Counted from the first letter of the stretch, positions 20,274 to 20,650 are shown. The stretch: DNA of 32,000 nucleotides from a cyanobacterium endosymbiont of Epithemia turgida isolate EtSB Lake Yunoko (GCF_000829235.1 NZ_AP012549.1:900001-932000); one strand, 5' to 3'. The notes: generated by a model not told the origin, from the sequence alone. Numbers and translations are program-made.

Positions 20274-20650
20274 AGACTTATCTTGTTGGTTTCTTGTTGC
20301 TTTGCGGTTGTTCTAGGACCCGGGGTTTTGACTGGTTGGTGATAACTTGCTAAAGGAGCATCTGCGTTCAGAGGTTTGACGTCAACAATCCGAATACCCA
20401 TGCGAGCAATGCGGCGTATTTCCTAATTTATTCACTGATAAGAAACAGTGACAGAGAAACTTCCACTGCGACGAACTAGGTAGTCAAGACTATAATTAAT
20501 CGCTACTCCGAATTTAACTCCACAACTCCGTAGACAAACAGTTGGTTTGTCTAGGGAGTTGCTTTGATTGAAGTCGCCCATTAGGCGGCTGTACATGTTA
20601 TCTGTTGTTCCCAATCCACTCAAAACACAACAGCTGCACTCTATCGTCAA
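20274..20650 (-). pseudogene. petH: Remnant of the petH N-terminal CpcD-like (phycobilisome-linker) domain and hinge
   Basis: The minus frame of 20432-20650 ends ...LDYLVRRSGSFSVTVSYQ. It is followed by TGA (20432-20434), Ile-Asn, TAG (20423-20425), and then EIRRIARMGIRIVDVKPL (20369-20422). This frame is out of phase with the core ORF: 20650-20273 = 377, which is not a multiple of 3. Confidence 0.85.

Follow-up and report, generated by a model that had tools for sequence, protein, structure and literature searches.

The petH gene of the nitrogen-fixing endosymbiont of the diatom Epithemia turgida (the spheroid body or diazoplast, EtSB) is very probably a pseudogene in one of its domains only: the CpcD-like part is dead, the core of the ferredoxin-NADP reductase (FNR) is kept, and a short soluble FNR is the only product. 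The gene lies on the minus strand of a 32,000-nucleotide stretch of the EtSB genome (NZ_AP012549.1:900001-932000), here called the window, and coordinates are counted from its first letter. The 297-aa FNR encoded there exactly matched the E. turgida endosymbiont protein BAP17448.1 / WP_044106149.1 and was 94-96% identical to the proteins of the R. gibba and uoEpiScrs1 endosymbionts; the exact match and the pseudogene-rich surroundings (decayed map, MazG, glyoxalase and MoaA) place the window in a diazoplast genome. EtSB is described as non-photosynthetic, with most photosystem genes missing and the chlorophyll synthesis genes and rbcLS pseudogenised (PMC5638926). The diazoplast sample comprised five genomes, namely EtSB, R. 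gibba 17Bon1-SB, E. clementina EcSB, uoEpiScrs1 and ERZ25042306 (a 3.1-Mb ENA assembly). The intact comparator was SU2 (GCA_002110465.1), a free-living unicellular diazotroph which is the closest known relative of spheroid bodies (PMC11131595) and which clustered with the diazoplast proteins in a homologue search. Its petH encodes 404 aa with a CpcD domain, and the locus is syntenic with the window (gene order MazG, SAM_HAT, adh_short, glyoxalase, MoaA, DUF4126, petH, map, PhoU, OprB). Full-length petH in a single frame was also found in free-living Cyanothece UBA12306, Cyanothece BG0011, Crocosphaera and Rippkaea.

Alignment to the intact SU2 petH revealed that 20274..20596 on the minus strand is the non-coding fossil of ancestral petH codons 1-107, covering the N-terminus, the CpcD domain and the hinge. 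The old ATG survives in EtSB at 20594-20596. The CpcD/phycobilisome-linker remnant (NQLFVYGVVELNSE ... RMGIRIVDVKPL) occupies 20366..20548 of the same strand, with approximate ends, and was recognised by Pfam PF01383. An earlier note, made from this DNA alone, had described a CpcD-like remnant on the minus strand directly upstream of the intact 297-aa core, and the reading frames agree with that description: the strand reads ...INYSLDYLVRRSGSFSVTVSYQ, TGA, Ile-Asn, TAG, then EIRRIARMGIRIVDVKPL. When the HMM search proposed in that note was run, the unstitched piece (X for stops) scored 33.4 bits (E 5.5e-8) and the frame-stitched fossil 37 bits (E 4e-9, profile positions 1-55 of 55), both above the gathering cutoff of 27 bits. 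The proposed alignment to full-length PetH gave, by tblastn with SU2, 67% identity over residues 34-82 (E 1e-15). The CpcD remnant is real and well beyond chance. It holds no translatable open reading frame (ORF), since TGA, TAG and five indels break the frame; the fossil is a remnant and not a member of the CpcD family in the functional sense.

The TGA (20432..20434) stands in place of Arg57 and the TAG (20423..20425) in place of Gln60, as the earlier note had proposed in placing the two stops on an Arg and a Gln position. Its further suggestion of single C-to-T changes holds for Arg57, where the codon is CGA in SU2 and in every free-living relative aligned, so that CGA to TGA is one C-to-T change. 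For Gln60 it depends on the ancestral codon, as TAG is one change away from CAG, found in two Crocosphaera, and two changes away from CAA, found in SU2, Cyanothece UBA12306 and BG0011. The two stops had thus been listed correctly, but five indels relative to SU2 had not been resolved: -2 near 20587, +1 T near 20512, +1 T near 20498, +1 A near 20351 and +1 A near 20281. Due to these indels, the ancestral reading changes frame on its way to the core, in the order 0, 1, 0, 1 and 2. NQLFVYGVVELNSE, with which the CpcD domain begins, lies in another frame than the piece INYSLDYLVRRSGSFSVTVSYQ...EIRRIARMGIRIVDVKPL, and a further stop, beyond TGA and TAG, is present in the shifted segment. The first three indels cancel out, which leaves the C-terminal half of the domain readable in the frame of the old ATG. 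Because of the last two (near 20351 and 20281), hinge and core are in different frames, as the earlier note had observed.

A similarly decayed N-terminal part precedes the 297-aa petH in each of the four further diazoplast genomes. The +1 T near 20512 was common to all five. The TAG at Gln60 was present in four of them (EtSB, R. gibba, E. clementina and uoEpiScrs1), the fifth having an 83-nt deletion that spans this segment, and the TGA at Arg57 in three (EtSB, R. gibba and E. clementina). Each genome also has damage of its own: at the old start uoEpiScrs1 reads GTG and then TAA, two genomes including ERZ25042306 have lost the old ATG, and private indels occur as well. Since lesions are shared, the CpcD domain was inactivated before the sampled diazoplasts diverged. 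The same lesions bear on whether the stops and frameshifts could be sequencing or assembly errors, or could be bypassed by recoding so that full-length PetH is still made. Single-base indels are typical of some sequencing platforms, which makes such errors a general possibility. However, the assembly of a separate public read set (Logan SRR29904087) was 100% identical to the window over 20,218 bp, and the lesions of the window are therefore not read errors; this independent assembly, which might have removed the stops and restored the frame, did neither. Shared and private lesions, including the 83-nt deletion and the loss of the old ATG, occur across five genomes from different host species, and in EtSB the five indels, the two in-frame stops and the further stop in the shifted segment go together with a neutral substitution rate. 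Error or recoding is effectively refuted.

The surviving petH ORF (19380..20273, minus strand, including the stop codon) encodes a 297-aa FNR core of two domains, FAD and NADP, identified by ORF call, Pfam and the exact protein match, and it resembles the short cyanobacterial isoform FNR_S. In Pfam searches NAD_binding_1 (PF00175) was detected with E 1.5e-27, and FAD_binding_6 (PF00970) / FAD_binding_1 (PF00667) fell just below their cutoffs. The RLYSIAS and GTGIAPF motifs and the C-terminal Tyr of plant-type FNR are readable in the translation. The core was 90% identical to residues 99-404 of the orthologous, syntenic SU2 PetH by tblastn and 86% identical to that of Rippkaea orientalis PCC 8801, and SU2 PetH, used as the orthologous query, matched the FNR structures of Anabaena and Synechocystis with E 1e-140 to 1e-198. 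Not a single indel was found in the 894 nt of the core across the five diazoplasts and SU2.

The start codon of this ORF is the conserved hinge Met of MTQAKA (20271..20273, minus strand), the first possible start after the in-frame TAG. This TAG lies 13 codons upstream, with no ATG, GTG or TTG between, and the petH ATG is likewise the first start past an in-frame stop in four of the five diazoplasts. The hinge Met is kept in all relatives aligned, being the Met of MTQAKAK in SU2, Rippkaea and Crocosphaera (MTQAKAK or MTETKEK in SU2/Rippkaea), and the crystal chains of Anabaena FNR start at an MTQAKAK-type motif. SU2 and Rippkaea share both the hinge sequence and the internal Met with EtSB, but their petH is an intact ORF of 404-406 aa with CpcD (PF01383), and their neighbours adh_short, glyoxalase, MoaA, DUF4126 and map are intact where those of EtSB are decayed or missing. 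The earlier note had equated the start with the internal Met that yields the short isoform in Synechocystis. It is indeed a conserved internal hinge Met, but not in the same alignment column: when the hinge was aligned without gaps to PDB 8hfq chain m, Synechocystis Met113 stood 12 residues ahead of IPVNIY and the EtSB Met 7, a shift of 5 residues in the downstream direction within a variable part of the hinge. We take the EtSB Met as the functional equivalent of Met113 in a different column. By sequence, an internal hinge Met serves as the translation start, as in FNR_S, whereas the long phycobilisome-bound isoform can no longer come from the same gene, its N-terminal part being dead; short FNR is thus the sole product that the EtSB petH locus can encode. 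Hinge and core still share one frame in some diazoplast lineages (the JGI metagenome PetH P0001 of 340 aa, and L089 2860-3000). Gene callers then place the start of the ORF further upstream, at a Met or TTG within the fossil (MGSQIVDVESLNADTPLQ...), so that annotated diazoplast PetH lengths differ for trivial reasons.

A 43-codon leftover ORF (MGIRIVDVKPLNADAPL...; 20270..20401, minus strand, by ORF call) lies inside the fossil, and its TGA overlaps the petH ATG as ATGA. Both the ORF and the overlap are probably fortuitous. Translational coupling through the overlap was considered and rejected as a mechanism of general validity, since the reading frames differ at this point in the other diazoplasts.

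The rates of change separate the two parts of the gene. We measured the share of variable sites across the five diazoplasts, with the 4-fold degenerate sites of the core (50% variable) as reference. Codon positions 1+2 of the core varied at 6.6% of sites, which signifies purifying selection. In the CpcD fossil 48.7% of sites varied, in addition to 96 gap columns (p = 0.9 against 4-fold sites), and variation at this neutral level gives no sign of purifying selection across the five diazoplasts. Similarly, 54% of sites varied in the 60 nt before the old ATG (p = 0.63). The fossil and the old start region drift neutrally. Two short segments showed lower values. In the 87-nt former hinge before the surviving ATG 33% of sites varied (p = 0.02), with a sliding-window minimum of 0.23, and in deep diazoplast pairs its pairwise divergence was 0.10-0.16 as compared to 0.27-0.35 at neutral sites (p = 0.002-0.013). 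In a 60-nt block further upstream (20731-20790) 30% of sites varied (p = 0.015).

The former hinge (20274..20360, minus strand) is A/C-rich and non-coding in EtSB yet conserved, as judged from rates, fold and frames, and it is a probable translation-initiation leader of the short ORF. It was predicted to be unpaired in the centroid fold. Protein-coding constraint was rejected as the cause of its conservation for four of the five genomes, in which an in-frame stop lies 13-16 codons upstream with no other start; ERZ25042306 alone has an open 46-codon extension through the hinge, with a TTG. A conserved RNA structure around the short start was also rejected, since RNAalifold returned 23 pairs with 0 compensatory changes and an unfavourable covariation term (+0.92). 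The 520-nt leader folds with z = -3.4, into which no function is read, the leader being former coding sequence.

The upstream block (20731..20790, minus strand) is near-invariant in the five diazoplasts and SU2, with an identity of 0.83-0.92 in every pair. It contains TTGACA (20752-20757) and TAGAAT (20735-20740) and is a candidate for the ancestral petH promoter or regulatory element. In a promoter and terminator consensus scan of 19300-21400 we obtained 4 promoter-like sites, as compared to 5.3 in shuffled sequence.

The most probable course of events is as follows. The free-living ancestor would have had a three-domain PetH, in which a hinge joined a CpcD-like phycobilisome anchor to the FNR core, from a gene that also possessed the conserved internal Met able to yield a short soluble isoform. 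When the lineage became a non-photosynthetic endosymbiont of rhopalodiacean diatoms, the anchor would have been left without its binding partner. In the ancestor that the sampled diazoplasts have in common, a +1 frameshift and a nonsense codon would then have struck the N-terminal part, which would since have drifted neutrally, gathering lineage-specific indels and deletions. Selection appears to retain the core and its internal ATG, together with roughly 90 nt of the old hinge, which is probably an unstructured, Shine-Dalgarno-independent initiation region, and the promoter-like block about 460 nt upstream. The ancestral promoter presumably still drives transcription, with the fossil forming a leader of about 455 nt in the transcript and ribosomes beginning at the old internal Met, and the cell would thus make only a short, soluble, plant-type FNR.

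Several points weigh against this account or parts of it. The promoter, the leader length and the true start in EtSB are what we infer from sequence. The gap between TTGACA and TAGAAT is only 11 nt, which is a non-canonical sigma-70 geometry, and with the hexamers at this distance the consensus promoter scan made no call on the upstream block. The conservation of the hinge and of the upstream block is modest, with p values of 0.015-0.02 based on some 60-90 sites; the tests on pairs are not independent of one another, and the p values carry no multiple-testing correction. The absence of phycobilisome genes from EtSB rests on literature statements about photosynthesis genes generally, and the in vivo direction of catalysis is deduced and not readable from the sequence. 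Finally, an internal promoter inside the fossil is equally open.

Such an internal promoter would make the short gene the product of a new start site within the fossil, with TAAATT (20511..20516, minus strand) as the -10 box and possibly with dependence on NtcA. We see this as a real but minor possibility, and TAAATT as a weak candidate. The E. adnata preprint (10.64898/2026.04.23.720389, Fig. S12) proposes an NtcA site and a -10 box (TAAATT) for petH at a distance of 237 nt upstream, on homologous sequence that corresponds to 20511-20560 (minus strand) of the window, i.e. to former CpcD coding sequence (ancestral ...GNRLFVYEVVGL...). The TAAATT hexamer includes the +1 T of all five diazoplasts. 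A TAnnnT hexamer stands at this position in four of the five and is absent from SU2, which reads TAAG-TC; TAnnnT is, however, common by chance in DNA of 33% GC. Conservation is slightly raised at 20546-20502, where 0.37-0.40 of columns are changed, but this is not significantly below the neutral rate, and conservation is stronger in the upstream block. In heterocyst-forming cyanobacteria the short isoform reportedly arises from an NtcA-dependent promoter (Omairi-Nasser et al. 2014), and this precedent speaks for a similar arrangement here. At the position proposed in the preprint, on the other hand, EtSB reads CTA-N9-ACT, so that the NtcA half-sites are not matched; a strict GTA-N8-TAC was not found in 20274-20800 of EtSB, and none was conserved upstream of petH in the five genomes. 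In the whole window GTA-N8-TAC occurred 6 times as compared to 6.7 expected, which is chance level. The only such site upstream of petH, GTAATAATTTTTAC (21294-21307, minus strand), is about 1 kb away from the gene and is followed by TATCAT after 25 nt. It was rejected as a chance occurrence of EtSB only, being missing from the other four diazoplasts and SU2 in the region corresponding to 21263-21307.

The +1 T common to all diazoplasts may have killed the long isoform and at the same time created the -10 box of a nitrogen-responsive internal promoter, although we hold this to be improbable. If true, this promoter and the hinge leader would drive a short-isoform-only transcript co-regulated with nitrogenase, and one mutation would have both disabled the antenna-bound form and rewired petH for diazotrophy, a state that UCYN-A would have reached by a different route.

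FNR_S, the small PetH isoform of Synechocystis PCC 6803 and Anabaena PCC 7120 (Thomas et al. 2006, cited in PMC9319322 and PMC9144156), is like the EtSB FNR a two-domain, soluble protein that starts at a hinge Met and is devoid of the CpcD anchor. The two cores are about 75-80% identical, and the direction from NADPH to ferredoxin is expected in both. In Synechocystis, however, an intact gene yields the short form as a regulated alternative to the long one, whereas in EtSB the long form is impossible; the EtSB allele works as a gene for the short isoform alone and not for two products. A similar allele has been engineered in the petH2D / FS1 strains, in which CpcD was removed and only the short form is made (PMC9319322; PMC9144156). 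Those hosts are photosynthetic and have phycobilisomes, unlike EtSB, which has no photosystem and presumably no antenna. The short-only truncation impaired photoheterotrophic growth in Synechococcus 7002 and enhanced cyclic flow in Synechocystis (PMC9319322; PMC9144156).

The FNR of UCYN-A, the nitroplast (ADB95264.1), is also of 297 aa, starts at the equivalent Met (MSAKTKVPVNIY) and has no CpcD. UCYN-A is, like EtSB, a nitrogen-fixing endosymbiont of Crocosphaera-group ancestry and of independent origin; according to PMC12377750, diazoplasts and UCYN-A arose independently from Crocosphaera-group ancestors. By tblastn, no CpcD remnant was detected in the 1.1-kb AT-rich spacer upstream of the UCYN-A gene (GCA_051971635.1, L082 2865-4000). 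This differs from EtSB, in which the fossil is present, and fits the older, more eroded UCYN-A genome (29% GC). The UCYN-A truncation thus looks like a parallel case at a later stage of erosion. As UCYN-A keeps photosystem I (PMC12377750), its FNR may also run in the photosynthetic direction, in contrast to that of EtSB, which has no photosystems.

The truncation could also have been adaptive, with CpcD removed by positive selection because the soluble short isoform would transfer NADPH electrons to ferredoxin more efficiently, for use by nitrogenase. This we consider unlikely. In its favour, the short isoform of Synechocystis favours NADPH oxidation (PMC9144156), two independent lineages of nitrogen-fixing endosymbionts (diazoplasts and UCYN-A) reached the same 297-aa form, PetH of the E. 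adnata diazoplast is abundant and changes with the Nif proteins, and the first shared lesion gives rise to a TAnnnT hexamer, a possible internal -10 box. The fossil nevertheless evolves at the neutral rate, as passive decay after loss of the partner predicts, and the internal Met pre-exists in all free-living relatives, so that no new function was needed. UCYN-A is not known to have a phycobilisome antenna. The loss of the antenna would then be the factor common to UCYN-A and the diazoplasts, and this favours passive loss of the domain over selection for the direction of flow. UCYN-A lost the domain although it keeps photosystem I (PMC12377750). Early positive selection and drift are inseparable by sequence data. 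The earlier note had called the short isoform hard-wired: the restriction to the short isoform stands, while the adaptation that the word implied does not follow from data which fit neutral decay with a retained internal start. Its prediction that phycobilisomes had been lost agrees with reports that the endosymbiont has lost photosynthesis. PMC5638926 and PMC12377750 give photosystem and other photosynthesis-essential genes as absent, in passages that make no mention of phycobilisome genes.

Without photosystems, FNR would usefully run only from NADPH to ferredoxin. Sugar would yield NADPH via the oxidative pentose-phosphate pathway, and FNR would pass the electrons to ferredoxin and on to nitrogenase; Fd-GOGAT and other ferredoxin-dependent enzymes might be served too. 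That FNR is retained in diazoplasts and that NADPH from this pathway feeds nitrogenase through FNR and ferredoxin has already been proposed (PMC11070190), in line with the role that the earlier note had assigned to the enzyme. The short isoform of Synechocystis mainly oxidises NADPH and reduces ferredoxin (PMC9144156), and proteomics supports the proposed role, in that PetH of the E. adnata diazoplast is abundant and changes with the Nif and pentose-phosphate pathway proteins (10.64898/2026.04.23.720389).

GenBank already annotates the EtSB petH product as a 297-aa FNR, and both the loss of photosynthesis and the role of FNR have been published. In the searchable literature we found no mention of diazoplast or UCYN-A PetH as existing in the short form only or without CpcD, although an earlier mention is still possible, nor of a CpcD fossil with shared lesions upstream of diazoplast petH, nor of the proposed E. 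adnata petH promoter sitting inside such a fossil. The conservation of that putative NtcA promoter needs cautious interpretation, since it lies inside former coding sequence. The locus is a natural allele able to encode the short isoform only, an outcome predictable to a specialist once the antenna is gone. The fossil offers a clean, datable case of domain-level gene decay in the transition from endosymbiont to organelle, in which strong selection on one part of a gene goes together with neutral drift of the other, following an event that predates the diversification of the sampled diazoplasts. PetH, highlighted by diazoplast proteomics as the likely supplier of reductant to nitrogenase, is the short soluble isoform only, which matters for models of electron flow and for attempts at transferring nitrogen-fixing compartments. 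The parallel with UCYN-A leads to a testable generalisation, that loss of the phycobilisome entails loss of the PetH anchor.

The surroundings of petH are a gene graveyard. Downstream, map (methionine aminopeptidase; 18430-19310, plus strand) is split by a frameshift near 18753-18756 into ORFs of 120 aa and 78 aa. It is intact in E. clementina EcSB (279 aa), ERZ25042306 (285 aa) and SU2 (287 aa), and looks like an EtSB-specific pseudogene within this sample. Upstream, the 2.6 kb of 20660-23245, where SU2 has adh_short, glyoxalase, MoaA and DUF4126, hold no ORF of at least 90 aa; faint remnants of glyoxalase (22506-22673, minus strand) and MoaA (21478-21669 and 21982-22071, plus strand) are left. 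A MazG-like remnant (24409-24798, plus strand) was 64% identical to SU2 MazG over 130 residues, and gene callers find only a 58-aa fragment there. ORFs of at least 90 aa are also absent from 8603-10567, which includes the lowest GC of the window (0.26 at 8001-10000), and from 13557-15374; both are probably further decayed genes. Intact genes of the window include hypA and hypB (25801-26970), which the earlier note had taken as fitting a diazotroph, and the organism does fix nitrogen, as well as plastocyanin, PGK and others. Plastocyanin (4454-4813, minus strand; 119 aa; Copper-bind E 5e-27) is intact despite the non-photosynthetic state of the endosymbiont and has a presumed role in respiratory electron transport; plastocyanin and cytochrome f are both detected in the E. 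adnata preprint as well (10.64898/2026.04.23.720389).

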